From Microcystis aeruginosa NIES-843 (GTDB taxonomy: Bacteria; Cyanobacteriota; Cyanobacteriia; Cyanobacteriales; Microcystaceae), in assembly GCF_000010625.1 (NCBI RefSeq), contig NC_010296.1, positions 4,440,001 through 4,472,000 of the forward strand: 32,000 nucleotides of DNA, read 5' to 3'. The notes under the pieces are model-generated. The model worked only from the letters and a program-made list of their open reading frames with translations, was not told the DNA's origin and did not search any database. Position 1 is the stretch's first letter; the number at the start of each line of letters is the position of its first letter. A program made the position numbers and the translations under genes. This document shows positions 7,182 to 31,193 of this stretch, piece after piece.

Positions 7182-8021
7182 ATGGATTATCAAAACTTAT
7201 CAGATGAACAATTCAAACGCCGTTTCGGTGTGTATAAACAAACCTATAGAAAGATGGTAGAATCAGTAAAAAGTGTTGAAGCCGACTCTAATTCACCATC
7301 TAAAAGGGGACCGAAACCTAAACTATCTATAGAAGAACAAGTTTTAGTAACGTTAGAATATTGGCGAGAATATAGAACATATTTTCACATTGGTACAAGC
7401 TGGGAACTATCAGAATCAACTATATGTCGGATTGTAAATAAGACGGAAAAAATGCTTTTACAATCGGGAAACTTCCGTTTAAAAGGAAAAAAAGCTTTAC
7501 TCAATCAAGCAGAGATACCGGTCATAACGGTAATGGATGTAACGGAAACTCCCATTGAACGCCCCCAAAAGAAACAGAAAGATTTTTTGGGGGGTAAAAG
7601 AGGTTATCATACTTTAAAATCCCAATTAGTAGCTGATCAAAATACAAAGGAAATTATCTGTGTCTTTTGTGGGAAAGGTAGAGGTCATGATTTTAGTTTA
7701 TTTAAAAAAAGTCGAGTTCGTTTTCATCCTTTAACTACCAGCATAGAAGACAGTGGTTATCAGGGAATAGCTGCATACCATAGTAATAGTTATACACCGA
7801 AAAAGAAATCGAAAAATAGAAAATTAACAGAGTTAGAAAAAGAGTATAACAAGGCTTTAGCCAAAGAAAGGATTATCATTGAACCTATAAATAGGAAACT
7901 CAAAATCTTTAAAATCTTATCCTGTAAATATCGGAATCGTCGTCGAAGATATAGTTTAAGAGTTAACTTGTTGGCGGCTATTTATAACTGTGAGTTAGGG
8001 ATAGGTATAGCAGCTTCTTAA
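7182..8021 (+). CDS. IS5/Harbinger-type (DDE_Tnp_4-like) transposase
   Basis: An HTH-like N-terminus (RGPKPKLSIEEQVLVTLEYWREYRTYFHIGTSWELSESTICRIV) is followed by acidic motifs VMDVTETPIERP, HDFSLFK and IEDSGYQGI, then ERIIIEPINRKLKIFKIL. The ORF is open from GTG 7128. ATG 7182 (MDYQNLSDEQFKRRFG) looks like the native start. I could not define the element ends. Confidence 0.65.
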   Translation: MDYQNLSDEQFKRRFGVYKQTYRKMVESVKSVEADSNSPSKRGPKPKLSIEEQVLVTLEYWREYRTYFHIGTSWELSESTICRIVNKTEKMLLQSGNFRLKGKKALLNQAEIPVITVMDVTETPIERPQKKQKDFLGGKRGYHTLKSQLVADQNTKEIICVFCGKGRGHDFSLFKKSRVRFHPLTTSIEDSGYQGIAAYHSNSYTPKKKSKNRKLTELEKEYNKALAKERIIIEPINRKLKIFKILSCKYRNRRRRYSLRVNLLAAIYNCELGIGIAAS

Positions 8022-8282
8022 AAGTTGCCTAAAGATTAATCAAGTCAAGGAGAATTTATTCTCAATTTTTATAATTGAGATAGTTTGTGCCGCTTAAATA
8101 AAGAGGTTTTGATAACCAAATTAAAGCAGCTCTAAAGAGTTTTGAGTTAAAAGTTAAACTTCAAGTTTTCATTCAGGACAAATGTACTGATTAACTAATT
8201 TTTTGGGGAAAATTAGTTAACCCATCATTATAACATATAATTAATTTGCAAGAGTTCTAATATCGTGAGGTGTAGATGAGAC

Positions 8283-9452
8283 ATGAAATCCATATTAAAT
8301 TTAGGAATAACAACAACTATCGCTGCAAACTCAATTCTATTTGCGACCTCTTCATTTTCTACTGAAGCTTTCTCATTGCCGCACAAGTCTATCCTTCTAG
8401 CTCAGTCAAGCAACACCATTAGCTTTAGAAATGCCTGTTCATCTCCTTTCCGACTAGCTATTCACTTTAAAAACCTTTCAGGACAGTGGGAGACAAAAGC
8501 TTGGTATTCTTTTTCACCTGGCGAACAATCACGCCTCAATGGAGTAGATACCAGAAACAGATATCTCTTTTACTATGCAGAGGCAACTGATGGTTCTGGC
8601 AAGGTGTGGTCAAGCAACGACACAAGCCAAACAATCGGGGGAAGAACTTATAATATGAAGAAATTTGATATAGGTTCTCAAGTTGTTAATTGGACTCAAA
8701 CCCTGACCTGTCCAGATCAGCAACTCATTTCAGCACTAAAAAGAATTCCTTCAAAATATCAGCCCCTACCTACAGAAGATTATGTTACGTTTCGTTATAA
8801 TCCGAATTCTTTAGAAATTGGAGTACGCATAGGCCCGGCTGTTCTCCGTAATGAGATTGAAAAAATTCCTGAACAGAGGCTTAAGTATACTGACTACAAT
8901 CGCCATACAGTTAAGTGGTTTAAATATAAGGGAATTGATGTTTCTAGAAGACAAATTCTAATTGGTTTTAGATATAGGTATCAGAAATTAGAAGATCGAC
9001 CTCTAATTGGTGGGCGTTTCACAGTATATGATAATGCTGCCAATGTCGATGTGGGAGTCAACCTTGAGGTAAAGAATAAGCAGCTAGATGGGAATGTTAA
9101 TGTTCGCAATGTAGAAGCTGACTGGGCAAGTGGAGTTCTAGGTTTAGTTCAGAACACATATGAAATTATGTTTGGTAGCTTGACTTTTTTAGTTGACGGA
9201 AAGTTTATCAGACCCTCTGATTTCGCAGCAGCAGTGGCACCTTGGGTAATAAATGCATCGACTACAGACCAAAGAAACCTTAGTCGCTTCTTCGGTGACT
9301 TAAATGACTTAAACAGTAAAGGAGTCATTTACCTTAAGCGAATTGACTATGATTCTCAAGGTGTATGGTATCAATTTTCAATAGACGAATCGCTCTTAGC
9401 CCAATCAGCTTCGAGGCTTGAATCAATGTTAAATAGCTGGGCAAATCGCTAA
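8283..9452 (+). CDS. Secreted protein with a DUF1036-like N-terminal domain and an uncharacterised C-terminal half
   Basis: Signal-like N-terminus (MKSILNLGITTTIAANSILFATSSFS). Residues ~45-145 (ISFRNACSSPFRLAIHFKNLSGQWETKAWYSFSPGEQSRL...YLFYYAEATDGSGKVWSS) follow the pattern I recall for DUF1036. I do not recognise the remaining ~240 aa. Confidence 0.5.
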   Translation: MKSILNLGITTTIAANSILFATSSFSTEAFSLPHKSILLAQSSNTISFRNACSSPFRLAIHFKNLSGQWETKAWYSFSPGEQSRLNGVDTRNRYLFYYAEATDGSGKVWSSNDTSQTIGGRTYNMKKFDIGSQVVNWTQTLTCPDQQLISALKRIPSKYQPLPTEDYVTFRYNPNSLEIGVRIGPAVLRNEIEKIPEQRLKYTDYNRHTVKWFKYKGIDVSRRQILIGFRYRYQKLEDRPLIGGRFTVYDNAANVDVGVNLEVKNKQLDGNVNVRNVEADWASGVLGLVQNTYEIMFGSLTFLVDGKFIRPSDFAAAVAPWVINASTTDQRNLSRFFGDLNDLNSKGVIYLKRIDYDSQGVWYQFSIDESLLAQSASRLESMLNSWANR

Positions 9453-9586
9453 GATGTCTAACAAATCGATGAAGCGGACGGGCAAGTTATGTTAATAGAG
9501 TTATCGAAGTTATCTGCCGCCGCTTATCTTGGTCGTTAGGTCGTTTCCAGCTTTGATGATAAACGTCATTAGAAGGAGTAAACGTT

Positions 9587-9832
9587 ATGAATACTTTGAT
9601 ATCGGGGGAATCTGATATGGGTACTGCTCGCTATAGTGATTTGGAAGTTGTCTCAGTCAAGAATCATTTTAGAGAAGACCTTTTCGATACTTACAATCCT
9701 AGTCGGCTATACTGTGGCTTAGGAAAATGCTATGGAAACAATGGGTGGTGTGGTTGCGGACACTTTCAAGAACAACCCGGTAATACGTGGTGGTGTAAGT
9801 GCGGACATCATTATAATGAGCACGGCTCCTGA
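9587..9832 (+). CDS. Small Cys/Trp/His-rich protein with a duplicated W-C-x-C-G-H motif
   Basis: 81-aa ORF preceded by GAAGGAG 9 nt upstream. The C-terminal half is CGLGKCYGNNGWCGCGHFQEQPGNTWWCKCGHHYNEHGS. No signal peptide is apparent and I recognise no family. Confidence 0.5.
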   Translation: MNTLISGESDMGTARYSDLEVVSVKNHFREDLFDTYNPSRLYCGLGKCYGNNGWCGCGHFQEQPGNTWWCKCGHHYNEHGS

Positions 9833-9960
9833 CCGTGAACGCTGTAAGGCGCAATAACGGTACTCCGCGTATTGCACCGAATGGATAAAAAGAGCAAAAT
9901 CCATAATCCCCGGTTTGTCTCCCTGCCCACCCGCCTAATATATAGTTAGGCAGATGCTAG

Positions 9961-11139
9961 GGGAGCATCCCAGTTTTGCAATGAGTAAAAATACTCAGGC
10001 AATATCGCCGTTGAGATAAGCACAACGTAGCTTCAAATACTGAGGAACATTCTCTGCTTTCCATTGTGCTCCCACAATTTTCATTCTTGCACCTATTTGC
10101 TTAATCTTTGACTCTACACTTCCAGAACCGATGCAAATCCCTTGTGATTGATAGAGTTCGTAATTGGGTATTCTTTCTCGATGTTTATCGACATATTTGG
10201 TGAAATTTATAGCCTGTTTCTTTTTGCATCCCTCTAATTCCTCTAAAACTCTTTTCACCTCTCCTTTCCATAAATTCTCTTTGATTCTATTCAGACGCTT
10301 GTTTGACCCGCCTATTTTCTTCATATTCTCTACTAAATGATACCAATCCAATATTTCTCTCCTTTTAACACCGATTTTCTCCATCAGATTCCACACCCCA
10401 TCATGACCATCTCCTAAACAGGTGACTACCTCTGTTAAGGGCTGACGGTTCACCCATTCCAGTAATTCTTCATTTTGCTGAAAAAATCCCGCACATTCTT
10501 GACCATGCAGACTTACTGCTTTGTAATCTCGACCTTGACTCGGTTGTCCTTTGGGCGTTCTGATTCTGACTTTTCCGACCTCTACACTCAATGCTTCTAC
10601 CGGACTCTTTGCTTCTGCTTCCTCAAATTTATATCTTTGTACAAGCCTCTGTTGACTACTGCCTGAAACTGCCATTCCTGTCGCCATTTTGATAGCTTTT
10701 TCCGCATCTTCAAAAGAGACTTTAGCCACTGCTCCTAAGCAACATTTCTCCAGCATGGGACTTAATCGATTATTCTTGCTTAATCCTAGTTTATCGGCTT
10801 GTTTCTCGCTTATCTTGACTTTCCCTATGATACTGCTTACGCTTTTGGTTCGCCCTGCTTGGGTTCCTGTTGCTGATTCAAAAAAAAATTGCCTATGGCA
10901 GGACCCAATGTAGTCAGCCAATGGTCTCGCAGGGCGGTTTCAATGCCCTCAAAGCTACGTAGTTGTTCTTCTGGGGTATTATCGACTAGAATTTGAGCAA
11001 TGGCTTTTAAATGTTGATCTAGTTGTTCTTTTTGGTCTGTATTCATGATTCTACCGTTTAATTGTTTCTCTTTATTTTGCCTTAGCTAACGTTTTTAGTC
11101 TCTAAGCATTTATACTTATGGCAAAATTGGGATGCTCCC
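9961..11139 (-). mobile_element. DDE insertion sequence, copy 1 (ISKra4-like family, assigned from memory)
   Basis: Terminal inverted repeats are GGGAGCATCCCAGTTTTGCAATGAGTA at 9961 and its imperfect complement ending GGGATGCTCCC at 11139. It belongs to the same family as 11410-12677 and 16882-18077. No target duplication is visible. Confidence 0.7.
9995..11046 (-). CDS. Transposase orfA/orfB joined by a -1 frameshift
   Basis: orfA (10837-11046) and orfB (9995-~10890) overlap at a T9 run (minus strand GGC AAT TTT TTT TTG). A -1 slip joins ...LGPAIGNFF to FESATGTQAGRTKSV... orfB carries CLGDGHDGVWN and ILDWYHLVEN acidic motifs. Confidence 0.7.
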
Positions 11140-11409: not shown

Positions 11410-12677
11410 GGGAGCATCTCACCTTTGCATTAAGCATTTATGCTTAATGAGGTAAATAAAAAAGTTAAAAAAGAGAACCATTCAGATAGGCACAGCGATG
11501 ACGAAGGACTTGCGGTACATTGCCAGAATTCCAACTTGCACCGGCAATTTTAACACGAAAACTAATTTGTTTCACCTGAGATTCCACAGAGCCAGAACCA
11601 ATGGAAATCCCCTCTTCTTGAAAATAACCATAATTGACAATTCGATGTTTATGCTTGTTCAAATAAATAATAAAATTCTCCACTTGCGGCTCTGACCATC
11701 CCTCAAAACAGGAGATAGCAGCATCCACTTCCCCCTTCCATAGAAAACATTTTACCTCATCAATCCGCTGGAATGACCCGCCAACTTTATAGAGGTTTTC
11801 GATTAAATGATACCAATCCAATATTTCAATTCTTTCCTGTTTCTCTCCTATCTGACCAAATAAATTCCAGATACCATCATGTCCATCTCCTAAACAAATT
11901 AAAGGTTTAGCCAAAACTTGAGAATTAACCAAATCTAATAAAGCTGAGTTATCTTGAAAAAAAGCCGCTACCCCCAGTTGATGAAAACTCACTGCTTTAT
12001 AATCACGCCAAATTAAGGCTTTTCCCTTGGCAGTTCTTAGTCGTACCTTACCGCCATCTAGGCTCATTTCTTCCACTTCCACTTCCACTTCTGGGTTAGA
12101 CGGTAATTCTTCAAAAGCATAGCGATGTACGAGGCGTTGTTGGGTACTGTGAGAAACAGCAATCCCTGTCAATGATTTGATTTTCTGCGCCGATTTCTCG
12201 TAGGATTCATCGCCACTTAATAGCAAACAGTTCTTCTCTAACATTGGACTCATCTGAGTCCGAGACTTTATTTCTAATTTTTTCGCTTGTTTTTCTGTAA
12301 TTGGTAATTCCCCCAAAATACTTTTCACTTTTCTCGTCCGACCGGCAGTTTCTTCTGTGCTTGTTTTGACAAAAAAATACCGATTTCTGGGTTAACATAA
12401 TGAATCATTAAATCTCTGACTGTCTCCTCTATCTCTCCCAAGTTATTAAATTTCTTAATTTGGGATTGCTCATAGAGACATTGCCCTAACTCTTGACATA
12501 ACTCTTTAATTCTTTTTTCATTTTCTGATAACATGGAATTATTACTCCCATCGAGAGCTATTCTGAATTGTAAGTTATAACTATTATAATCTCATTTCTC
12601 TTTGTGATCAAGTTCAGGATTTTCTAGTTTTTGACTGCTATAAGCATTAATACTCATTGCATAAGTGAGATGCTCCC
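11410..12677 (-). mobile_element. DDE insertion sequence, copy 2 (same family)
   Basis: Inverted repeats are GGGAGCATCTCACCTTTGCATTAAGCA at 11410 and the complement ending GAGATGCTCCC at 12677. No target duplication is visible. Confidence 0.7.
11465..12534 (-). CDS. Transposase orfA/orfB joined by a -1 frameshift
   Basis: orfA is 12325-12534 and orfB is 11465-~12370. They overlap at the minus-strand sequence GGT ATT TTT TTG (heptamer T TTT TTG). A -1 slip gives ...EIGIFF-VKTSTEETAGRTRKVKS..., colinear with copy 3. Confidence 0.7.
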
Positions 12678-12722
12678 GGTTAAATTAAAACTATCCATTG
12701 ACATTCAAGGAGAGAATTTCCG

Positions 12723-13112
12723 ATGTCTTATCAGCTTATTTCGGAGTTATTGGCGAAATATTTTCATCAGATTAAACAAGTTTTGACCCAAAAATCCCTA
12801 ATAGTGCTTCTTTTAGTTTGGACTCCTATACTTTTTCTCCAAACAGGGATAATGCAATATCTGGATGCTCAAAAATTGCCCCTTGCTAATTCTCCTGAAA
12901 TTTCCACAAACTATCGTGGAATCAACCCTGGATTATTACCAGTACCTGTAGATCCTGTATCAGAACGAATTAGAGAAAATCTATATTTAGATAATCTAGA
13001 TATAGAAGAATCTTCGGACAAAGATGAGAACTCTTTGGACTGGTTGATTCCCGTAGCAATCGGAGCAGGTGCGATCGCGTTATGTTTAGCTACTGGCTGT
13101 TTAATACCCTAG
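12723..13112 (+). CDS. Small membrane protein (two predicted TM segments), unknown function
   Basis: 129 aa with AGGAGAG upstream. One hydrophobic segment is SLIVLLLVWTPILFL. The C-terminal segment is DWLIPVAIGAGAIALCLATGCLIP, similar to the C-terminus of the next ORF. Confidence 0.5.
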   Translation: MSYQLISELLAKYFHQIKQVLTQKSLIVLLLVWTPILFLQTGIMQYLDAQKLPLANSPEISTNYRGINPGLLPVPVDPVSERIRENLYLDNLDIEESSDKDENSLDWLIPVAIGAGAIALCLATGCLIP

Positions 13113-13122
13113 AGGAGAAAGA

Positions 13123-13515
13123 ATGATGTCTCAAGACCTTAGAAATCAGAAACCTGATGTTGATAATTCTAGCGACATCCGAGTAAAACAGTCTCCAAAC
13201 GGAGAGTTAAAGCAATTTCTGAAGCAGCCGTTTGGTATAGCTTTAGCAATGATACTCATAGTGCTTTTATCAGGAACAACATTTGTTGTAGGTAAAGCTT
13301 CAGTAAGTCGAAGTTTTTGTATTGCGAGCTTTAACTGTCAGGCAAATACCGATAATGATATAGGAGGTAATACATCAGCGAAAGCAGGGAAAAACGGCAC
13401 AGTTAATATCGAACAACCATCCACACAGCAAAAACCTTCTGAAGATCATTGGACGGAAATAGCAATAGGCGTGGGAGCAATAGCAATAGCCTTGTGGTGG
13501 ATCGTACTCTTGTAG
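13123..13515 (+). CDS. Small membrane protein (two predicted TM segments), paralogous architecture
   Basis: 130 aa, starting 10 nt after the previous stop, with GAGGAGAAAG upstream. Hydrophobic segments are FGIALAMILIVLLSGTTFVV and the C-terminal WTEIAIGVGAIAIALWWIVLL. Confidence 0.5.
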   Translation: MMSQDLRNQKPDVDNSSDIRVKQSPNGELKQFLKQPFGIALAMILIVLLSGTTFVVGKASVSRSFCIASFNCQANTDNDIGGNTSAKAGKNGTVNIEQPSTQQKPSEDHWTEIAIGVGAIAIALWWIVLL

Positions 13516-13645
13516 ATGTTTACTGGCATTCTCAACTATTTAACCTTTTGTTGTCAAAGATATGAGTGTAATCAACTTATAGAATGTTTCTAAATTCTTC
13601 CGTGTCGAAAAAAGTGAGGAATGCCCCGATGGGATTCGCCAAGCT

Positions 13646-14296
13646 TTGAATGACATAAGTTTGACGATAAACGAGGGAGAGTTCGTTCTTTTACTAGGAC
13701 TGAATAGTTCGGGGAAAACTACTGCCCTCAACATAATAACAGGAGTCTATACTCCCTCTGAAGGTCAGGTAGAGCTTTTTGGCAATCAGCTATCAGATAA
13801 TCTAATCCCAAGGGAAATTAAAGAACGCATGGGAATAGTTTTCTCAAAGGTGGAATTACCTGAACAACTTACTGTAGAAGAAATTATCAGTCTTTTTCAG
13901 AGCTATTACTCCAATCCCTTCGGGATAGATGAAGCAATTAAGCTATTCGAGCTTAAAAATTGGCGCAAAACTCTTCTAAAAAATCAGCAAGAACTTAGTC
14001 AAGGCAGGAACAAGAGGCTTCTGATTGCTCTAGCTTTATCTGGCAACCCCGATCTATTACTTTTTGATGAGCCAACCGCTAATTTAGACCCACCAGGAAG
14101 AAGACTATTTTGGCAACTCATGAGAGATTTATCAAGTCAGGGTAAAACTATCCTAATTTGTATGCCAGAGGAGAATTCTGCTCAAACTGAACAAACAACG
14201 TCAACAATTGAAGATCTGTCACGTGCCAGAGAACTGGCGACTAGAATTGGGTTCTTCGGTTTGTGTTATGCAATGGACGGGAGTTATAAGGGATGA
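13646..14296 (+). CDS. ABC transporter ATP-binding part (likely a pseudogene fragment)
   Basis: Walker A GLNSSGKTT, signature-like LSQGRNKR and Walker B LLLFDEPTANLD are present. The true 5' end appears to be ATG 13562 (MSVINL), followed by an in-frame TAG at 13580 and then NVSKFFRVEKSEECPDGIRQALNDISL. The last 15 codons (GFFGLCYAMDGSYKG*) are MITE sequence. Confidence 0.7.
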   Translation: MNDISLTINEGEFVLLLGLNSSGKTTALNIITGVYTPSEGQVELFGNQLSDNLIPREIKERMGIVFSKVELPEQLTVEEIISLFQSYYSNPFGIDEAIKLFELKNWRKTLLKNQQELSQGRNKRLLIALALSGNPDLLLFDEPTANLDPPGRRLFWQLMRDLSSQGKTILICMPEENSAQTEQTTSTIEDLSRARELATRIGFFGLCYAMDGSYKG

Positions 14297-14437
14297 AACC
14301 ATTATATAGAAAGACATTGCTTCGATTTTTGCCAATTGTTTTCAATCTAGAACGAGCTAATCAATTAAGTCTCTTGCCAGATAAGGATTTAGCCGATTTA
14401 TGCCCCCTGATCGAACCATACCAAGTAACGAAGAACC
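14250..14437 (-). mobile_element. MITE family B, copy 1 (reverse orientation)
   Basis: 188 bp with terminal inverted repeats GGTTCTTCG...CGAAGAACC. A perfect 8-bp target duplication TAGAATTG lies at 14242-14249 and 14438-14445. It belongs to the same family as 21245-21431 and 23471-23656. Confidence 0.85.
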
Positions 14438-15368
14438 TAGAATTGTAGAATTCAATAATGGCGAAATAGTGAGTGATACTGTCATTTCATCAATTACTAA
14501 TCAAGTAGATAGTTTAAGAGAAGTGAATGTATCTCCCCCAAATAAATCATTTGAGATCCTTAAAGAGCAAGTTCGAGTTGAGTTTCTTCAGTTGTGGCGC
14601 AAGCCAATGGTGCTGGTTTTTAGTCTGCTGCTGCCTCTATTTATCGTATATATATATAGTAATATGGTCGACAAACAGCTAATTTACCAGCAGTTAATTG
14701 CCTATGCGATTTTAGGTCTATTAATCATTTCTATACAAACTTTTGGAACAAAAGTGGCTGAAGAAAAAACCAAGGGTTGGATGAAATTATTGCAAGTCAC
14801 GCCTCTTCCTCCACCAATATATATAGTGGCTAAAATTATAGTTGCTATATTTATTTCAGGGCTTTGCCTTGCCTTACTCTTCTCCTTTTTTGCCGTAACT
14901 TTAGACTTTGACCAACCCTTTTTGACCTGGCTATTTGTTTTCTGTATTTTGATAGTCGGCATGATTCCTTTGAATGCAATGATGCTTGCTTTGGGATACT
15001 GGATTGATAAAGATATTTTCGGTTATTTCACTCTGCCGATTATGATAGTGTGGATTGTATCGGGACTGATTTTACCAATAAAAATCTTACCTAAAACTGT
15101 ACAAAATTTACTTCCTTACCTGCCCATACCTACCTACCACTATGCTCAAATCGCTCTTTGGGCAGGAGGAATACCCAGTGAAAAAGTTCATATTTGGCTA
15201 GATTGGCAATGGCTAATCTGGGCTACAGTTGTCTTTGGAATGCTAGCAGCCTGGGGATATCAGCGCAGCCAAATCGATCAGAAACTAACCTGGTTTAGTT
15301 TATTAGAGCAAATCAAAAAGAAATTGAGTAAGTTTAGCTTATTAGAGCGATTATTTGCTCGCTTTTAA
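14400..15368 (+). CDS. ABC-2-type permease part (originally fused in frame to the ATPase)
   Basis: About six hydrophobic segments follow residue 70. The first 13 codons (MPPDRTIPSNEEP) are MITE sequence. The native sequence resumes at 14446 with (I)VEFNNGEIVSD, which is the normal C-terminal strand of an ABC ATPase. Confidence 0.65.
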   Translation: MPPDRTIPSNEEPRIVEFNNGEIVSDTVISSITNQVDSLREVNVSPPNKSFEILKEQVRVEFLQLWRKPMVLVFSLLLPLFIVYIYSNMVDKQLIYQQLIAYAILGLLIISIQTFGTKVAEEKTKGWMKLLQVTPLPPPIYIVAKIIVAIFISGLCLALLFSFFAVTLDFDQPFLTWLFVFCILIVGMIPLNAMMLALGYWIDKDIFGYFTLPIMIVWIVSGLILPIKILPKTVQNLLPYLPIPTYHYAQIALWAGGIPSEKVHIWLDWQWLIWATVVFGMLAAWGYQRSQIDQKLTWFSLLEQIKKKLSKFSLLERLFARF

Positions 15369-15381
15369 AGCTACTTTTTAC

Positions 15382-15583
15382 CTAATTCATCTGTTGCTTT
15401 ACCCATAAAATTGCACATTTTGGTTGAGACAATGTAGAGCTAATGAAAAGATTATTAGTTTTCCAATTGTTATGATTTCCGTCGCTGTGATGCAGTCGGA
15501 CTTTCTCTTCGTCGACGAATTTTAGACCACATACTGTACATGAATGGTTTTCTCTAATTAAGGTTTTGCTGTTGCTCCATCAT
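15382..15583 (-). pseudogene. Small HNH-endonuclease-like gene, frameshifted
   Basis: The minus strand reads MMEQQQN, then a 1-nt frame change, then LIRENHSCTVCGLKFVDEEKVRLHHSDGNHNNWKTNNL... The C-x-x-C ... HH-x-D-G-N-x-x-N pattern fits an HNH motif. Each piece is under 60 aa, so it is absent from the ORF track. Confidence 0.35.
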
Positions 15584-15697
15584 AGAGTTTAAAGATCGCC
15601 GATCTTGTAGGCTGGGTTGACGCTCAGGAAACCCAACACCCTCGGAAACAAGAGTAAATCTGGTAGGATAGGGATTGGAGAGATTTTCTAGATTTCT

Positions 15698-16171
15698 GTG
15701 AGCGAAACCGTCTATATTGAAACCAGTATCTTAGGCTACCTTACCGCTCGACCGAGCAGAGATATTATTGTGGCGGCTAATATTGAAATAACGAGAGAGT
15801 GGTGGAATACACGCCGCGGTGACTTCCAACTCTACTCCTCACAAGCGGTTGTAAAAGAAACCTCACAAGGCGATGTCGCGATCGCGTCTCAACGACTAGA
15901 AATTCTCGGTAATCTATCTTTACTCGACTTGAATCAAAATGTACTCGATTTAGCAGAGCGATTTTTGGAACGTAGCAACCTTCCAACAAAAGCTGATGTT
16001 GATGCTGTTCATATCGCGGTCGCGACTGTTCACGGCATGGATTATCTGCTGACATGGAATTGCAAGCACATTGCCAATGCTCAAATACAGGGAAAATTGG
16101 CGGAGATTAGCCTTGATCTTGGATATCAGTTACCGATTCTTTGTACACCTTATGAACTTCTAGGAGGTTGA
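15698..16171 (+). CDS. PIN-like domain protein (putative toxin)
   Basis: 157 aa with a GTG start. VYIETSILGYL, DAVHIAVATVHGMDYLLTWNCKHIAN and the overall length fit a PIN-like fold. The usual first Asp is Glu here. The next ORF is translationally coupled to it. Confidence 0.55.
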   Translation: MSETVYIETSILGYLTARPSRDIIVAANIEITREWWNTRRGDFQLYSSQAVVKETSQGDVAIASQRLEILGNLSLLDLNQNVLDLAERFLERSNLPTKADVDAVHIAVATVHGMDYLLTWNCKHIANAQIQGKLAEISLDLGYQLPILCTPYELLGG

Positions 16172-16173
16172 TT

Positions 16174-16401
16174 ATGTTTCAAGATGAAATTGTCGAAGAG
16201 ATTCACAGAATTCGTGAAGAGTATTCTCGGTCATTCAATCATGACTTGAAAGCCATCTTTGCTGACTTACAAAAGCAACAAGAGGAAGGCGGCAGAGAAG
16301 TTGTAAACTTGTCTCGAAAACACGGTCTAACAACACGTTGGAGCGGACAGAGAAAAGAGGTTGGTGACGATGCAACAGAAATTAGCCGCCGCTCAACTTA
16401 G
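16174..16401 (+). CDS. Small partner protein of the PIN-like gene (putative antitoxin)
   Basis: ATG 16174 lies 7 nt after TAGGAGG and right after the upstream stop (16169-16171). The sequence starts MFQDEIVEEIHRIREEYSRSFNHDLKAIFADLQKQQEEGGREVVNL. The last ~28 codons lie in a dispersed repeat (GGTCTAACAACACGTTGGAGCGG...). Confidence 0.5.
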   Translation: MFQDEIVEEIHRIREEYSRSFNHDLKAIFADLQKQQEEGGREVVNLSRKHGLTTRWSGQRKEVGDDATEISRRST

Positions 16402-18077: not shown

Positions 18078-18411
18078 GCCTACTCCAGTGGTTGGTCGGC
18101 AGGTTTTAATGGAGGTACACACAACAATACATCAGAAAATGAACGCAGTCGTAACTGCTATGATTGGGGTTATACGGATGGTAAAATCGAAAAATCTAAA
18201 CTGGATATGCAAAGAATGCGTAATGAATCGTATATATATCGGATGTGCCTCAGTACTCGAATTTTAGATCCTAGCATTCAGTGTCAGCAACCTCGTTTTT
18301 AGTGCGATCGCTGATCGCCGTAGGCTGGGTTGACGGCAGGAAACCCAGCATTGCTTTTCTCTATCAACACTAACCAAAAGCACGATCCCACCCAAAACAC
18401 ATCGACCCTTA

Positions 18412-21244: not shown

Positions 21245-21431
21245 GGTTCTTCGTTACTTGGTATGGTTCGATAGGGTGGCATAAATCGACTAAATCCTTA
21301 TCTGGCAAAAGATTTAATTGATTAGTTCGCTCTAGATCAAAAACAATTGACAAAAATCGCTAAATGCCTTTCTCTATAAGGGTTCCATCCCTTATAACCC
21401 TCGTCCATTGCATAACACAAACCGAAGAGCC
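21245..21431 (+). mobile_element. MITE family B, copy 2
   Basis: GGTTCTTCGTTACTTGGTATGGTTCG...CAAACCGAAGAGCC, 187 bp. It is flanked by an 8-bp duplication TTTTTTTT (21237-21244 and 21432-21439). Confidence 0.8.
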
Positions 21432-22417: not shown

Positions 22418-23934
22418 ATGTACGGAGTTCAAGAAGTTCTCATCCATACAGACAGCGAGATAAGGGCTGTCTTAGAGTTTGTCTGTGAAGAAGCTAACAA
22501 GCTGGCTAATTGTGGTATTTATTATTGTCGGCAAATGCTTTTTAAGGCAGGGCGATATATCGGTAAATATGACCTTGATTCTCAGTTGAAAAATAACCCT
22601 CATTTTCGAGCCATGCGGTCATGTTGCGCTCAACAATTGCTACATGATGTTGCTGAATCTTTTTCTTCCTATAAAGGGCTTTTAGGTCTTTGGAATAAAG
22701 GGCAATTACCTAATAAGCCTAGACCACCTAAATATCGAAAGAAAGGGGGGATGGCAGTAGTAACCTATACGGCAAGATATGTGAAGTTAACCGAAAAAGG
22801 GTTAAGGTTTTCGTTGGGGGATCAGGTAAAAGCTTGGTTCGGGATTGATAGTTTTTATCTGCCAATGCCGTCTAATTTGAGGTTTGAAGACATTAAAGAG
22901 TTTCGGATCGTTCCTAGAAATCTTAGTTTTTATCTTGAGTGTGTTTATAAGCAACCCGATCAAGAGAAAGTTAAGCCTAATAACACTGTACTAGGAATAG
23001 ATCACGGATTGGGTAACTGGTTAACCTGCGTTTCTAACACGGGAAAGTCTTTTATCTTTGACGGAAAAAAGGCTAAGTCTCAAAATCAATGGCATAACAA
23101 GCGAGTTGCTCAAATTAAGACTGGTAAGCCGCCGGGTTACTGGGATGATGAATTAGCTAAAATAACCGAAAGGCGTAACCGACAGATGAGAGACGCTACC
23201 AATAAAGCTGCTCGTTTTATTATCAATTGGTGTCTCGGCAATGACATTTATACTGTCGTTTTTGGAGGGAATCAGCGACAAAAAGACTCGATTGAGTTAG
23301 GAAAGAAAGTTAATCAGGAATTTGTTAGTATTCCCACAGCGAAGCTTAAAAATCGCATTTGTCAATTGTGTGAAAAGTACGGGATTAAATTCGTTGAGAC
23401 TGAGGAAAGCTACACCTCAAAGGCTTCTTTTTTAGATGGTGATTCGCTACCTAAATTCGGTGAGAAACCCGGTTCTTCGTTACTTGGTATGGTTCAATAG
23501 GGGGGCATAAATCGACTAAATCCTTATCTGGCAAGAGACTTAATTGATTAGTTCGCTCTAGATCGAAAACAATTGACATAAATCCCCGAATGTCTTTCTA
23601 TATAAGAGTTTCATTCCTTGTAACCCTGTCCGTTGCATAAGACAAACCGAAGAACCAGAAACCCGAAGGGTGGCAGTCATCAGGTAAAAGAATTAAAAGA
23701 GGTTTGTTTAAAGCTTTTAGTGGTCAATTAATTAATGCTGATTGCAACGGTGCGGCCAATATCATTAAAAAAGTAGCCACACAGCTAGGGGTTTCTCTAG
23801 ATAAGGTGGGTAGGGCATCTTTGACAGTGCCACAACGATATAAATTGGATAGCCTTTCTAAAATAGATCGTAATCGAATAGAAGCGCGGTTTCAACCCGC
23901 TTCTATTCACCGATTAGAATCCCCGTCTTTTTAA
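22418..23934 (+). pseudogene. tnpB: IS605-type TnpB (OrfB) RNA-guided nuclease homologue, split by MITE B
   Basis: RuvC-like motifs are GIDHGLGNW, VETEESYTSKAS and NADCNGAANI. Removing 23471-23664 restores ...LPKFGEKP|EGWQSSGKRIKRGLFKAFSGQLINADCNGAANI... It is divergent from tnpA, which is the IS605 arrangement. Confidence 0.8.
23471..23656 (+). mobile_element. MITE family B, copy 3
   Basis: GGTTCTTCGTTACTTGGTATGGTTCA...CAAACCGAAGAACC, 186 bp. An 8-bp duplication AGAAACCC lies at 23463-23470 and 23657-23664. Confidence 0.85.
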
Positions 23935-25600: not shown

Positions 25601-25897
25601 TCAGATATTACTGGAAAAAAATACTTTCCAAGCAGCCGTAATAATGGCACTTCCCAAAAGGATGATTAATGTCCAGACCTGATTTTTTTGGGTTCCCTCT
25701 ACTGATCTGAGCCGATTGTCGATGCCTTCAATTTTCCCGTCTAACACTTTAATATCCCCTTTGAGATCGGCTATTCCTATTTCTACTTTTGTCAAGCGCT
25801 CATCAATCTTATCGAATTTTTGACTAACTTCCTTGATACTGTCTTTAATTTCTTTAAGGACGACATCCAGGGAATAAGTGACAGTTTCGTTAGACAT
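25601..25897 (-). CDS. Tail-anchored coiled-coil protein, paralogue A (98 aa), XhlA-like architecture
   Basis: MSNETVTYSL... has a heptad-like KIDERLTKVEIGIADLKGDIKVLDGKIEGIDNRLRSVEG segment and the C-terminal TM VWTLIILLGSAIITAAWKVFF. Confidence 0.65.
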   Translation of the reverse strand: MSNETVTYSLDVVLKEIKDSIKEVSQKFDKIDERLTKVEIGIADLKGDIKVLDGKIEGIDNRLRSVEGTQKNQVWTLIILLGSAIITAAWKVFFSSNI

Positions 25898-26009
25898 TGG
25901 CTAAACTCCTATACTGCATCTGGTTGGATATAATTTTATCTTAGTCTAGGCTTTAAGAAAATTTTCTTTCAGGAGCGATTAACTGTAGTCTTGTTGAGAA
26001 TTAGAGAAC

Positions 26010-26318
26010 TCAGATATTACTGGAAAAAAATACTTTCCACCCAGCCGTAATAATGGCACTTCCCAAAAGGATAATTAATGTCCAGACCTGATTTTTTTGG
26101 GTTCCTTCCACTGATTTTAGCCGATTGTCGATGCCTTCGATTTTCTCGTCTAACACTTTAATATCACCTTTGAGATCAGTTACTCCTATTTCTAGTTTGG
26201 TTAACCGATCTTCTACCTTGTCAAATCTTTCGTTAACCCGCTTCTCAAGCGAGTCGATCTTTCCCTCAATCCTTGTGAGGACAGCTTCTAGGGAATAAGT
26301 AACAGTTTCGTTAGACAT
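26010..26318 (-). CDS. Tail-anchored coiled-coil protein, paralogue B (102 aa)
   Basis: Same N-terminus and C-terminal TM as the other paralogues. It carries 11 extra residues in the coiled-coil part relative to the 91-aa copies. Confidence 0.65.
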   Translation of the reverse strand: MSNETVTYSLEAVLTRIEGKIDSLEKRVNERFDKVEDRLTKLEIGVTDLKGDIKVLDEKIEGIDNRLKSVEGTQKNQVWTLIILLGSAIITAGWKVFFSSNI

Positions 26319-26431
26319 TTGGTAAACTCCTATACTGCATCCGGTTGGATATAATTTTATCTTAAGTCTAGGCTTTAAGAAAATTTTCTTTCAGGAGCGG
26401 TTAACTGTAGTCTTGTTGAGAATTAGAAAGA

Positions 26432-26707
26432 TCAGATATTACTGGAAAAAAATACTTTCCATCCGGCCGTAAAAATGGCACTCCCCAAAAGGATAATTAA
26501 TGTCCAGACCTGATTTTTTTGGGTTCCCTCTACCGATATTAGCCGATTGTCGATGCCTTCGATTTTCTCGTCTAACACTTTAATATCCCCTTTGAGATCG
26601 GTTAATCCTATTTCTACTTTTGTCAAGCGCTCATCAATCTTATCGATCTTTCCCTCAATCCTTGTGAGGACAGCTTCTAGGGAATAAGTAACAGTTTCGT
26701 TAGACAT
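26432..26707 (-). CDS. Tail-anchored coiled-coil protein, paralogue C (91 aa)
   Basis: The protein is identical to paralogue D. It has its own RBS. Confidence 0.65.
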   Translation of the reverse strand: MSNETVTYSLEAVLTRIEGKIDKIDERLTKVEIGLTDLKGDIKVLDEKIEGIDNRLISVEGTQKNQVWTLIILLGSAIFTAGWKVFFSSNI

Positions 26708-26820
26708 TGGCTAAACTCCTATACTGCATCCGGTTGGATATAATTTTATCTTAAGTCTAGGCTTTAAGAAAATTTTCTTTCAGGAGCGGTTAACTGTAGT
26801 CTTGTTGAGAATTAGAAAGA

Positions 26821-27096
26821 TCAGATATTACTGGAAAAAAATACTTTCCATCCGGCCGTAAAAATGGCACTCCCCAAAAGGATAATTAATGTCCAGACCT
26901 GATTTTTTTGGGTTCCCTCTACCGATATTAGCCGATTGTCGATGCCTTCGATTTTCTCGTCTAACACTTTAATATCCCCTTTGAGATCGGTTAATCCTAT
27001 TTCTACTTTTGTCAAGCGCTCATCAATCTTATCGATCTTTCCCTCAATCCTGGTTAGGACAGCTTCTAGGGAATAAGTAACAGTTTCGTTAGACAT
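26821..27096 (-). CDS. Tail-anchored coiled-coil protein, paralogue D (91 aa)
   Basis: The protein is identical to paralogue C. In the stretches I compared by eye, the DNA differs at two synonymous positions (CTC ACA in C versus CTA ACC in D, in VLTR). Confidence 0.65.
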   Translation of the reverse strand: MSNETVTYSLEAVLTRIEGKIDKIDERLTKVEIGLTDLKGDIKVLDEKIEGIDNRLISVEGTQKNQVWTLIILLGSAIFTAGWKVFFSSNI

Positions 27097-28822: not shown

Positions 28823-31193
28823 GTTGCCCTAAGCCAGATATGTCACCATTCTGGCTCGGCTTCAAAACGGTGCGTGAGACTTTCACCTCACACCGCTCCT
28901 CTCTCCAATGGCTCTTTGTCATGAGTACCAGTTTTATCTAATGCAGTTTTAGAATCGTGGCAATGTCGATGGAGTAACTGTTTATTATCTCGATTGTTTT
29001 TACCCCCTTTTGATTTAGGGATAATGTGGTCGGTTTCGAGTATGTCTCCATCTTGGAAATATAGTCCACAATATGCACAACGTCCTTGCTGTCTTTTGAG
29101 TAGAACAGCTTTTTCTGGTGGCATTTCTGGGTGTTTACCCATTCGACTACTCCAATATATTAAATCCCCATCATAGGGACTTTTATCCCCTTTCACCTTG
29201 ACGTATCTTACGATTTTTGTATCTAGGTGTCTTGCCAGTTTGAAGGGGTTTTTACCTTCTCTTGTGCTGAATACCCAATTATCTTTTCCCTCAGTATGCC
29301 AATATTTACGCATTATCCAAGTTTTGTTTTTCATTGGGTGTCGTCTGTCTGCCCATCTTTTGAGTTTTTCAAAGAAGTAGTAATCACAATCTGTGAATGT
29401 TTTTGAGCTTACTACTGATGAATAGTAATTGCTCCATCCTCTAATGATTGGATTGAGTCGTTTGATTAAGGCATCCTGTGGGGATGACTTCTGACTATTT
29501 ACTACTTCTCCCAATTTCTTTAGATGGGACTTGACTTTTTCAGCACTAGGCTTGATTAGGTTTTTAAAACCTAGTTTGACTCCTTTACTACTTTTTGCCC
29601 CGTGATGTTTTCCGACTTGGTATTGCCTGATGTTGAATCCGAGAAAATCAAATCCAACGTAATCATCATAAGTTTCAAGAGTATGGGATATTCTTGTTTT
29701 ACTAGGCTTCAGTTCTAGCCCCATTTCTGCTAACCATTGTTTAATGATTTCCTGACATTCCTTTATTACCTTTAAATCTTCGTGCAGGATAACAAAATCA
29801 TCTGCATATCTGATTAGGGTTAAGGCTTGTTCATTTTTGGATTTATTGCCTTTCAGAGTTCTTGCATATTGCTTAACTCTTTCTTCCATGCCGTGTAAGG
29901 CTATGTTAGCTAGTAAAGGGGAGATTACACCTCCCTGTGGTGTGCCTTCATTGGTAGGGAATAGGTTTTTTCCATCCATGACTCCACTCTTTAGCCATGC
30001 TTTGATTTGTTGTCTTAGCTTGGGGTAAGTTTGAAGTTTTGTCAGTAGTTTCTGGTGGTTTATTTGATCAAAGCATTTACTTATGTCCGCATCTAGCACA
30101 TATTTGGGCTTTTTGTTGATGCTTATGTAGATTGCTCCGATTGCGTCATGGGCTGAACGTGCTGGTCTAAATCCATAACTGTTAGGTTCAAATTTTGCTT
30201 CCCATTCGGGTTCTAATGCCAGTTTTACTAAGGCTTGTAATGCCCGTTCGTACATGGTGGGAATCCCTAGAGGTCGCTTTTCATCCGTATTGGGTTTTGG
30301 TATCCATACTCTACGAGTTGCTTTTGATTTATTGCCAAGTTTTAGATTATTGACAAGTGCCATTCTTTGTTTGGGTGTTAAGGATTTTATCCCATCTACC
30401 CCGGCGGTTTTCTTGCCTTGATTATCTTGGCTAACCCGTCTGACGGCTATCAGTTTGGCGTACCAGCTTTTTAGGAGTAGCCTTTGTAATTTGTGGACTA
30501 ATTTGACATCACCCCGTTGACTGGCTTTGAATATTCTTTTTGGTAACTTAAAAACACATCTTTCAGCTTTTCGCCAGTTGATGTCCTTCCATTCATACAT
30601 CGGTTTTGTTGCCGTGTTCATAACTTTTTCATTACTACTTAAGACCATTCATTCCATTGAACAGTGTGTACGTCAGCATATCCTTATCTATTACAGATAG
30701 GCGTTGGCTTCTTACACAATCCTTTCCTATATGAGTCTTACGCTGGTTACTACTTAGATTTCGACCTATCTAAGAGATTCATAAGGATTACTTCGTTCCC
30801 AACCACCGTATTCCTAACTTTAGTGTCTTCCTCTATACCGAAGCTGTGTAGATGATTCTGGTTGAACTCTATCTTTTCCCAGTACGTTAGCTTGTTAACA
30901 TTTTGTTGCCAGCCAATAATCTGTGTAGGCTAGGTTTCAGTGACGATACTTCTGACGGAAGTTCTTATTCATACACATAGTTAGATGCTAGACAGGTTTT
31001 GATGTCAGATTCATCTTTACTGCCATTTAACCCCGCTTTTCCCCTTTTGATGACCGTTCTCCACAGGAAGGGGTTATGCTGTCACTCCATCATCTGGAGG
31101 GAAGGACTTTCACCTTCACGGTTATTGAGTTATCAAGGTTCTCAACCTTGTCCTACCCACGTCTGTTAGACTTTTGGTAGGAACGAGTCGCAC
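28823..31193 (-). mobile_element. Group II intron (2371 nt) with intron-encoded protein
   Basis: The minus-strand 5' end is GTGCGAC at 31193. Domain V is GAGCGGTGTGAGGTGAAAGTCTCACGCACCGTTT at 28865-28898, followed by a domain VI-like hairpin. The 3' end ...GGGCAAC is at 28823. The flanking exons join in frame to give a TnpB N-terminus. Confidence 0.85.
28888..30648 (-). CDS. Group II intron reverse transcriptase/maturase with C-terminal HNH endonuclease domain
   Basis: RT motifs are [43 protein letters not shown] and RYADDFVIL. The maturase X region has RGWSNYY. The HNH region is CAYCGLYF...[27 protein letters not shown]. The likely start is ATG 30621 ([11 protein letters not shown]). Confidence 0.9.

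Follow-up and report, generated by a model that had tools for sequence, protein, structure and literature searches.

We interpret positions 12723 to 15368 of a 32,000-nucleotide (nt) stretch of Microcystis aeruginosa NIES-843 DNA (contig NC_010296.1, positions 4,440,001 to 4,472,000; the whole stretch is referred to below as the window) as a pseudogenized copy of a conserved cyanobacterial cassette, A-B-ABC, for a homodimeric type V exporter with two envelope partners, a reading to which we assign a probability of about 0.6. Genes A and B encode small membrane proteins, and the third gene once encoded an ATP-binding cassette (ABC) ATPase and its permease in one chain. Members of at least eight cyanobacterial genera, and two plasmids, have kept the fusion and the two upstream genes, which defines a compact, widely spread cyanobacterial cassette that public annotation had previously named only generically. 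The cassette is an undescribed variant within the well-known ABC-2 exporters; what is new is the pairing of the transporter with two unannotated protein families, which has not been described so far.

A fused transporter gene split by a transposable element

The third gene of the cassette now lies in pieces on the forward strand. Its ATPase part, or nucleotide-binding domain (NBD), was recognized by translation and Pfam at 13562 to 14249, where a 188-nt MITE (miniature inverted-repeat transposable element) is inserted (14250 to 14437). The linker, the ABC-2 (type V) transmembrane (TM) domain and the C-terminal tail, ending in TAA, occupy 14446 to 15368. Two copies of an 8-bp target-site duplication, TAGAATTG, flank the element at 14242 to 14249 and 14438 to 14445. 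The earlier note on this DNA, made from the sequence alone, had claimed that removing 196 nt would bring the two frames together in an ancestral gene of ∼535 codons. We reproduced this result: the deletion yields a single open reading frame (ORF) of 536 codons that ends at 15368 and reads ...ELATRIVEFNNGEIVSD... across the junction. In the rejoined ORF, Pfam identified an N-terminal ABC ATPase (ABC_tran, E = 6e-29, 101.8 bits against a cut-off of 25) followed by a C-terminal ABC-2 permease (ABC2_membrane_3 [PF12698], 38.5 bits, cut-off 31.6; ABC2_membrane [PF01061], 34.1 bits, cut-off 26.9). A second lesion lies near the start of the gene. Read from the ATG at 13562, the ATPase frame gives MSVINL*NVSKFF, with a premature TAG at codon 7 (13580 to 13582, +). 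The intact allele P0132, found at loci L007 and L008, has CAG (Gln) at this codon, reads MSVINLQNVSKFF and encodes 535 amino acids (aa).

The inserted element has the features of a MITE: it is short and non-coding, its terminal inverted repeats are 9 bp long (GGTTCTTCG...CGAAGAACC), it has a target duplication, it is present in three copies in the window, and the corresponding sites in relatives are empty. The two further copies are ∼89% identical to the first and lie on the reverse strand at 21245 to 21428 and 23471 to 23656; the latter stands directly after an IS605 OrfB/TnpB-like gene (22418 to 23500). Small size, absence of coding sequence, inverted repeats, target duplication and presence in many copies are also properties of the MaeMITE elements described in the NIES-843 genome paper (PMC2779907), among which MaeMITEb has 187 bp and 132 copies; on length alone, the 188-nt element may be assigned to MaeMITEb. 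The insertion provides the ATPase part with an in-frame stop (TGA, 14294 to 14296) and the permease part with an AAGGA and an ATG at 14400. This ATG is where the annotated 322-aa "permease" ORF begins, and gene callers report products of 216 and 322 aa. One MITE insertion has converted a fused gene to the usual two-gene layout, a possible route for gene fission.

The fused transporter as a family trait

Relatives were sought by an exhaustive HMMER protein search and by a scan of metagenome contigs with a five-sequence alignment of the TM domain. In a further protein search, based on a word index that performs poorly with these membrane domains, a full-length alignment was swamped by generic ATPases, and a TM-only alignment returned five proteins. 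At the 50%-identity level, the HMMER search gave about 20 representatives (465 to 547 aa), in which query residues 1 to 480 were matched in one stretch at 27 to 43% identity. The metagenome scan gave 52 loci, about 35 of which have a fused ORF of 472 to 543 aa with Walker A near residue 40; its most distant hits were ordinary unfused permeases of 249 aa, which fall outside the family. All of the ∼46 relatives (27 to 43% identity, 470 to 550 aa) are single-chain proteins. Named members come from Pseudanabaena, Dolichospermum, Anabaena sp. UHCC 0187, Tychonema, Microcoleus and Calothrix, and two are plasmid borne (Nostoc sp. N6 pNPM4 and Aulosira laxa NIES-50 plasmid1). They are annotated as "ABC transporter ATP-binding protein/permease" or "hypothetical protein."

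The opposite arrangement, with separate ATPase and permease genes and no conserved small ORFs beside them, was looked for; the homologues proved to be fused, with the small genes directly upstream. From these comparisons, the fusion of ATPase and permease is ancestral and not an accident. One member, L063 (Calothrix sp. CSU_2_0, positions 7639 to 9915), has a gene A without its C-terminal tail and an ABC gene frameshifted near 8956 to 9001; this damage could be decay or an assembly error.

Two families of small membrane proteins precede the transporter

In the window, gene A (12723 to 13112, +) encodes a 129-aa membrane protein of family A. Hydropathy places a TM helix (..LLLVWTPILFLQT..) at its N-terminus and another helix (PVAIGAGAIALCL) at its C-terminus, with a 60-aa outward-facing loop between them. 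Gene B (13123 to 13515, +) encodes a 130-aa membrane protein of family B, whose TM helix precedes the motif GKASVSRSFCIASFNC and a loop, the C-terminal helix (IAIGVGAIAIALWWIVLL) coming last. The order, common strand and close spacing of A-B-ABC are all found here; the gap between A and B is 10 nt, as the earlier note gave it, and that between B and the ABC gene is 46 nt where 47 had been given. The region had also been described as a four-ORF operon. The ancestral unit instead consists of three genes, with a fourth wherever B has been duplicated.

The same arrangement recurs at almost all of the loci, about 28 distinct ones in number, including L009, L068, pNPM4 and the Aulosira plasmid1, with A and B upstream of the transporter gene on the same strand and always in that order. 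Family A proteins (∼115 to 466 aa) begin with a TM helix (..LLWTPLL..), usually followed by QHSCxP(M/L)..W.....C, a variable region and a C-terminal hydrophobic hairpin ending in ..AP..VAVGxGxAVWL..R... The variable region contains Pro-rich or low-complexity spacers or immunoglobulin (Ig)-like domains. In the A protein of L068, there are two Big_9 domains (32.3 bits, above cut-off), and Big_2-like repeats can be read from the sequence of the Aulosira protein. Because these Ig-like domains lie in the loop, we argue that the loop of A is outside the cytoplasm. The QHSC motif was considered as a lipobox and rejected, the residues preceding the Cys being a poor fit. Family B proteins (61 to 148 aa) have a TM helix, often then TKGSDFC..S.C, and a hairpin similar to that of A.

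The earlier note had called the two Microcystis proteins paralogs with a common C-terminal tail. The tail stands: 31 residues align with 13/31 identical (pairwise E = 8e-5), a likeness that is weak alone and is upheld because both proteins belong to conserved families having the same tail. The two are not close paralogs, however: A and B are distinct families with the last helix alone in common. With a hidden Markov model (HMM) of the shared tail, each of 28 loci yielded two ORFs, neither more nor fewer, and no further tail-bearing ORF was present in the flanks, to which the search was confined (∼9 kb around each locus). Neither family matched a Pfam, NCBIfam or PADLOC model above noise; in PADLOC-DB 2.0, A and B were unmatched except for a marginal hit of Microcystis B to PDC-S11 (E = 0.0083), and the ABC protein drew generic ATPase hits only.

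Membership of the Microcystis proteins in the two families was assessed separately. Against a family A HMM built without Microcystis, Microcystis A scored 20.1 bits, a value reached by 0 of 500 shuffles; over TM1, it and the A protein of L068, its closest relative, have 55% identity (E = 2e-8). Microcystis B scored 4.0 bits against the wider family B HMM, which is not significant; because that model was too distant, homology was established via L068, to whose first B protein Microcystis B is 51% identical (E = 3e-28) and to whose second it is 36% identical (E = 2e-16). The gene order at L068 is A-B-B'-ABC. Hydropathy indicates that the small proteins of the Microcystis/L068 sub-lineage have one C-terminal helix in place of the hairpin. 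At another locus, L041, a 69-aa Gly/Ala-rich, glycine-zipper-like ORF (1058 to 1267) lies just 5' of gene A.

Predicted fold and relationship to known exporters

An AlphaFold model of P0132 was obtained with a predicted local distance difference test score of 83.5 and a predicted template modeling (TM) score of 0.82. Its best Foldseek matches in the PDB were ABCG25, ABCG2, ABCG1, ABCG5/G8 and ABCH-9C, over the full length, with TM-scores of 0.57 to 0.72 at 14 to 18% identity. The six-helix type V fold with its elbow helix was recovered in the model and in the Foldseek matches, and the corresponding Pfam ABC2_membrane assignment was obtained. As modeled, the protein is a bacterial half-transporter with ABCG architecture and the type V exporter fold. 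When a profile of the ATPase was compared with PDB sequences, ABCA3, ABCA4, ABCA7 and ABCA1 came first, followed by ABCB proteins and NosF; no ABCG protein was among the 60 PDB matches listed, and in this comparison the ATPase sequence does not group with ABCG.

The resemblance to eukaryotic ABCG/ABCH half-transporters comprises a single chain with the ATPase first, a six-helix type V domain second and a presumed dimer. The cassette differs from them in its cyanobacterial host, in the two small membrane-protein genes that accompany it and in an ATPase sequence nearer to ABCA and NosF. Prokaryotic relatives of the ABCA/ABCG ATPases have been found to be single-domain proteins (PMC4649718), and the simplest reading of the sequences is that this fusion arose independently of the eukaryotic one. 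The domain order alone is not new, because NBD-TMD half structures had already been noted in prokaryotes (PMC4649718).

The earlier note had called this order unusual for bacteria, and among bacterial ABC-2 systems it is indeed uncommon. It is not unique, however: the bacterial type VII transporter MacB has the same N-terminal ATPase-permease order and a partner, MacA, that spans the periplasm. Four TM helices together with a large periplasmic domain (FtsX fold) characterize MacB, whereas the cassette transporter is type V, and no Pfam match to FtsX was found in the rejoined ORF, which places it outside the MacB/FtsX type. With the bacterial DrrAB and NodIJ exporters it shares the TM families PF12698 and PF01061, and its best NCBIfam hits are to drrA and the DrrB family. 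These hits fall well short of membership (drrA [TIGR01188], 113.9 versus 312.45 bits; DrrB family [TIGR00025], 29.5 versus 146.9 bits); moreover, the ATPase and permease genes of DrrAB and NodIJ are separate, and partners like A and B are absent there. An analogy with fraCDE, which comprises two membrane proteins and an ABC-2-like permease, was considered and dropped because the cassette occurs in unicellular Microcystis.

Decay of the cassette in Microcystis

The ATPase motifs distinguish Microcystis from the rest of the family. The Microcystis ATPase retains Walker A (GLNSSGKT) and Walker B (LLLFDEP) with the catalytic Glu. In both Microcystis alleles, though, Ser replaces the Q-loop Gln, the signature is LSQGR or LSSGR, and a 12-aa insertion without a His occupies the H-loop, so that the competent catalytic set (Q-loop Gln, LSGGQ and H-loop His) is lacking. 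Outside Microcystis, all 46 members retain Walker A and DEPT along with the Q-loop Gln and a signature of the form L-x-G-G; at the H-loop position, about 20 have His, about 22 have Asn and 3 have Gln. The Asn form (VTNN) is thus found in about half of the family with the other ATPase motifs all kept (alignment of L011 to L047, L009, L010, L071 and L072). Since the uninterrupted P0132 allele is also degenerate, the Microcystis motor was already atypical or failing when the TAG and the MITEs arose. The ratio of nonsynonymous to synonymous substitution rates in the NBD, calculated between the two Microcystis alleles, was 0.47. Selection on the module had probably been relaxed by the time of its disruption.

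The relative age of the lesions can be read from other Microcystis alleles. L001, a lake metagenome contig, is 100% identical to window positions 12436 to 16380 without the 188-nt MITE, and L065 to L067, assembled from three separate sequencing runs, match the window at 100% identity once exactly 196 nt are taken out of it, and keep the TAG. Since every MITE-free allele of this haplotype has the TAG, the nonsense mutation predates the MITE. The earlier note had ascribed the decay to the TAG at codon 7 and the MITE; both are present, with the TAG the earlier event. A second, unrelated MITE of 126 nt is found in L001, L007 and L008, with the inverted repeat GGCTCTTC and the 7-bp duplication ACCTGGT (L001 positions 2664 to 2796). 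It substitutes the last 24 residues of the C-terminal tail of the transporter; its empty target site in the window is the ACCTGGT at 15288 to 15294. The CAG-to-TAG change at codon 7 thus preceded the MITE that split the gene, and the loss of ATPase motifs would have come before both.

Up to 14187, L007 and the window disagree at 57 of 770 positions, and over the next 858 at none; the alleles are therefore mosaic. This pattern indicates that Microcystis alleles have recombined close to the junction of ATPase and permease. Within window positions 13480 to 15294, the mosaic against L007/L008 is sharp, with its break near that junction. The locus offers a clear, datable case of gene decay, in which a nonsense mutation was followed by two MITEs in different lineages, with allele recombination in addition. 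We regard the cassette in NIES-843 as a pseudogene and its transporter as dead in this strain.

Proposed function and alternative explanations

For intact cassettes, we propose that the transporter acts as a homodimer and, by analogy with other type V exporters, may export from the cytoplasmic membrane a substrate that is hydrophobic or linked to lipid. The earlier note had suggested substrates, immunity proteins or accessory subunits as roles for the two small proteins. Among these, we favor accessory subunits: A and B would be dedicated partners that dock by their conserved C-terminal helices of small residues (..AP..VAVGxGxAxW..). The variable region of A would project into the periplasm, with Cys-containing motifs just outside the membrane and then a Pro-rich spacer or Ig-like domains, and A and B might serve the exporter as adaptors or reach-out elements.

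Several observations weigh against this proposal. Nothing in the sequence indicates a substrate. The Asn that stands for the H-loop His in about half of the family raises doubt as to whether these motors have an ordinary ATPase cycle. The topology of the three-segment A and B proteins is unlike that of the two-segment forms of Microcystis and L068, and because the two differ, the docking model must accommodate both. At L030, which has ample upstream sequence, neither A nor B accompanies the fused gene. An operon is suggested only by gene spacing, and a scan for promoters and terminators produced hits no more numerous than in shuffled sequence. Finally, defense or conflict genes often occur in the flanks, a context equally compatible with a different role.

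We think it unlikely that the cassette represents a new, cyanobacteria-specific envelope machine, with an ABCG-like motor that powers or positions two membrane-tethered proteins bearing Ig-like or Pro-rich, periplasm-spanning regions. Such a machine could conceivably be a new protein sorting or extraction pathway that depends on C-terminal helices, or else a mobile conflict or defense module; about half of its motors would run on the unusual Asn-for-His catalytic loop.

The small proteins could instead be cargo. Their C-terminal tail, with its turn motif (Gly/Glu-Ala-Pro), hydrophobic helix and basic residue, would then be a sorting signal by which the ABC protein extracts them to the envelope or cell surface, in parallel with the lipoproteins of LolCDE and with sortase-type signals. 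Only the tail is common to A and B, and it is conserved throughout the family, Ig-like domains such as those in some A proteins are typical of surface proteins, and each protein has an N-terminal hydrophobic segment with a conserved Cys soon after it. Sorting systems usually serve several cargoes, however, and, as noted above, the tail occurs in no other ORF of the flanks surveyed. In addition, the N-terminal segment often follows 30 to 60 hydrophilic residues, unlike a signal peptide, and QHSC, read as sequence, does not fit a lipobox. The type V fold is not known to include protein-extraction members, and we consider this explanation rather improbable.

We give equally little credence to the possibility that the cassette is a conflict module for self-immunity or defense. 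A and B would in that case be membrane-active proteins with glycine-zipper-like helices, controlled or expelled by the ABC exporter, as in the bacteriocin immunity transporters (LanFEG and McbEF) or the membrane effectors of abortive infection. Their helices are rich in small-xxx-small motifs, and mobile or defense contexts are frequent. In a five-locus sub-clade, an MmeI-type restriction-modification enzyme flanks the cassette on one side and GmrSD on the other, and L036 has DrmA farther out. At other loci, it is adjoined by CHAT, NACHT, caspase-like or dynamin-like genes or by plasmid functions. Of the carrier plasmids, one is mobilizable and one conjugative, and in the window the cassette stands between UPF0236-type transposase remnants and a PIN-domain toxin gene. 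Against this, housekeeping genes are the neighbors at many other loci, and since defense genes are abundant in cyanobacterial genomes, adjacency is weak evidence. A survey of 81 flanking proteins found no consistently linked gene besides A and B; it also found no precursor peptide, modification or processing gene, as would be expected of a LanFEG-type system, and no toxin-like leader or protease. The hit of the ABC protein to an NCBIfam lantibiotic ATPase model was far under cut-off, and, as described above, PADLOC has no model for A or B and only generic ATPase hits for the ABC protein. The cassette is self-contained and mobile.

It is very improbable that the split genes of the window still work, the MITE having created an ATPase/permease pair with its stop, its AAGGA and its ATG, as the two annotated products might suggest, and the TAG being bypassed by a restart at the TTG at 13646. 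This start would forfeit the first 28 residues, among them the strand (NVSKFF) whose aromatic residue stacks on adenine; degeneracy already affects the Q-loop, signature and H-loop; and the three different disrupting events (the TAG and two MITEs) segregate in the population, as for a dispensable gene.

The preferred reading, an exporter with two accessory envelope partners, is open to experiment through culturable strains with intact plasmid copies (Nostoc sp. N6 and Aulosira laxa NIES-50), which make the cassette testable. For structural biologists, the cassette offers a small bacterial stand-in for ABCG-type half-transporters with natural partner proteins, in a family some of whose members naturally have Asn for His in the catalytic loop.

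Other features of the window

Directly upstream of gene A, two ORFs on the reverse strand (9995 to 10921 and 11465 to 12534) gave partial, near-cut-off matches to UPF0236, which we take to be an ISLre2-type transposase family; they are probably pieces of disrupted insertion sequences. A ∼42-nt repeat lies 3' of the ABC gene at 15594 to 15635 and again, 86% identical and 2.7 kb away, at 18306 to 18347. Farther downstream, at 25601 to 27096 (-), are four tandem small ORFs of 91 to 102 aa; the three that were scanned gave weak, sub-cut-off Pfam hits of the XhlA-like or coiled-coil kind, and the four may form an array of paralogs encoding small membrane proteins. At 28829 to 28901 (-), Rfam models of group II intron domain V/VI matched above their gathering scores, overlapping the start of a 586-aa ORF (28888 to 30648, -).

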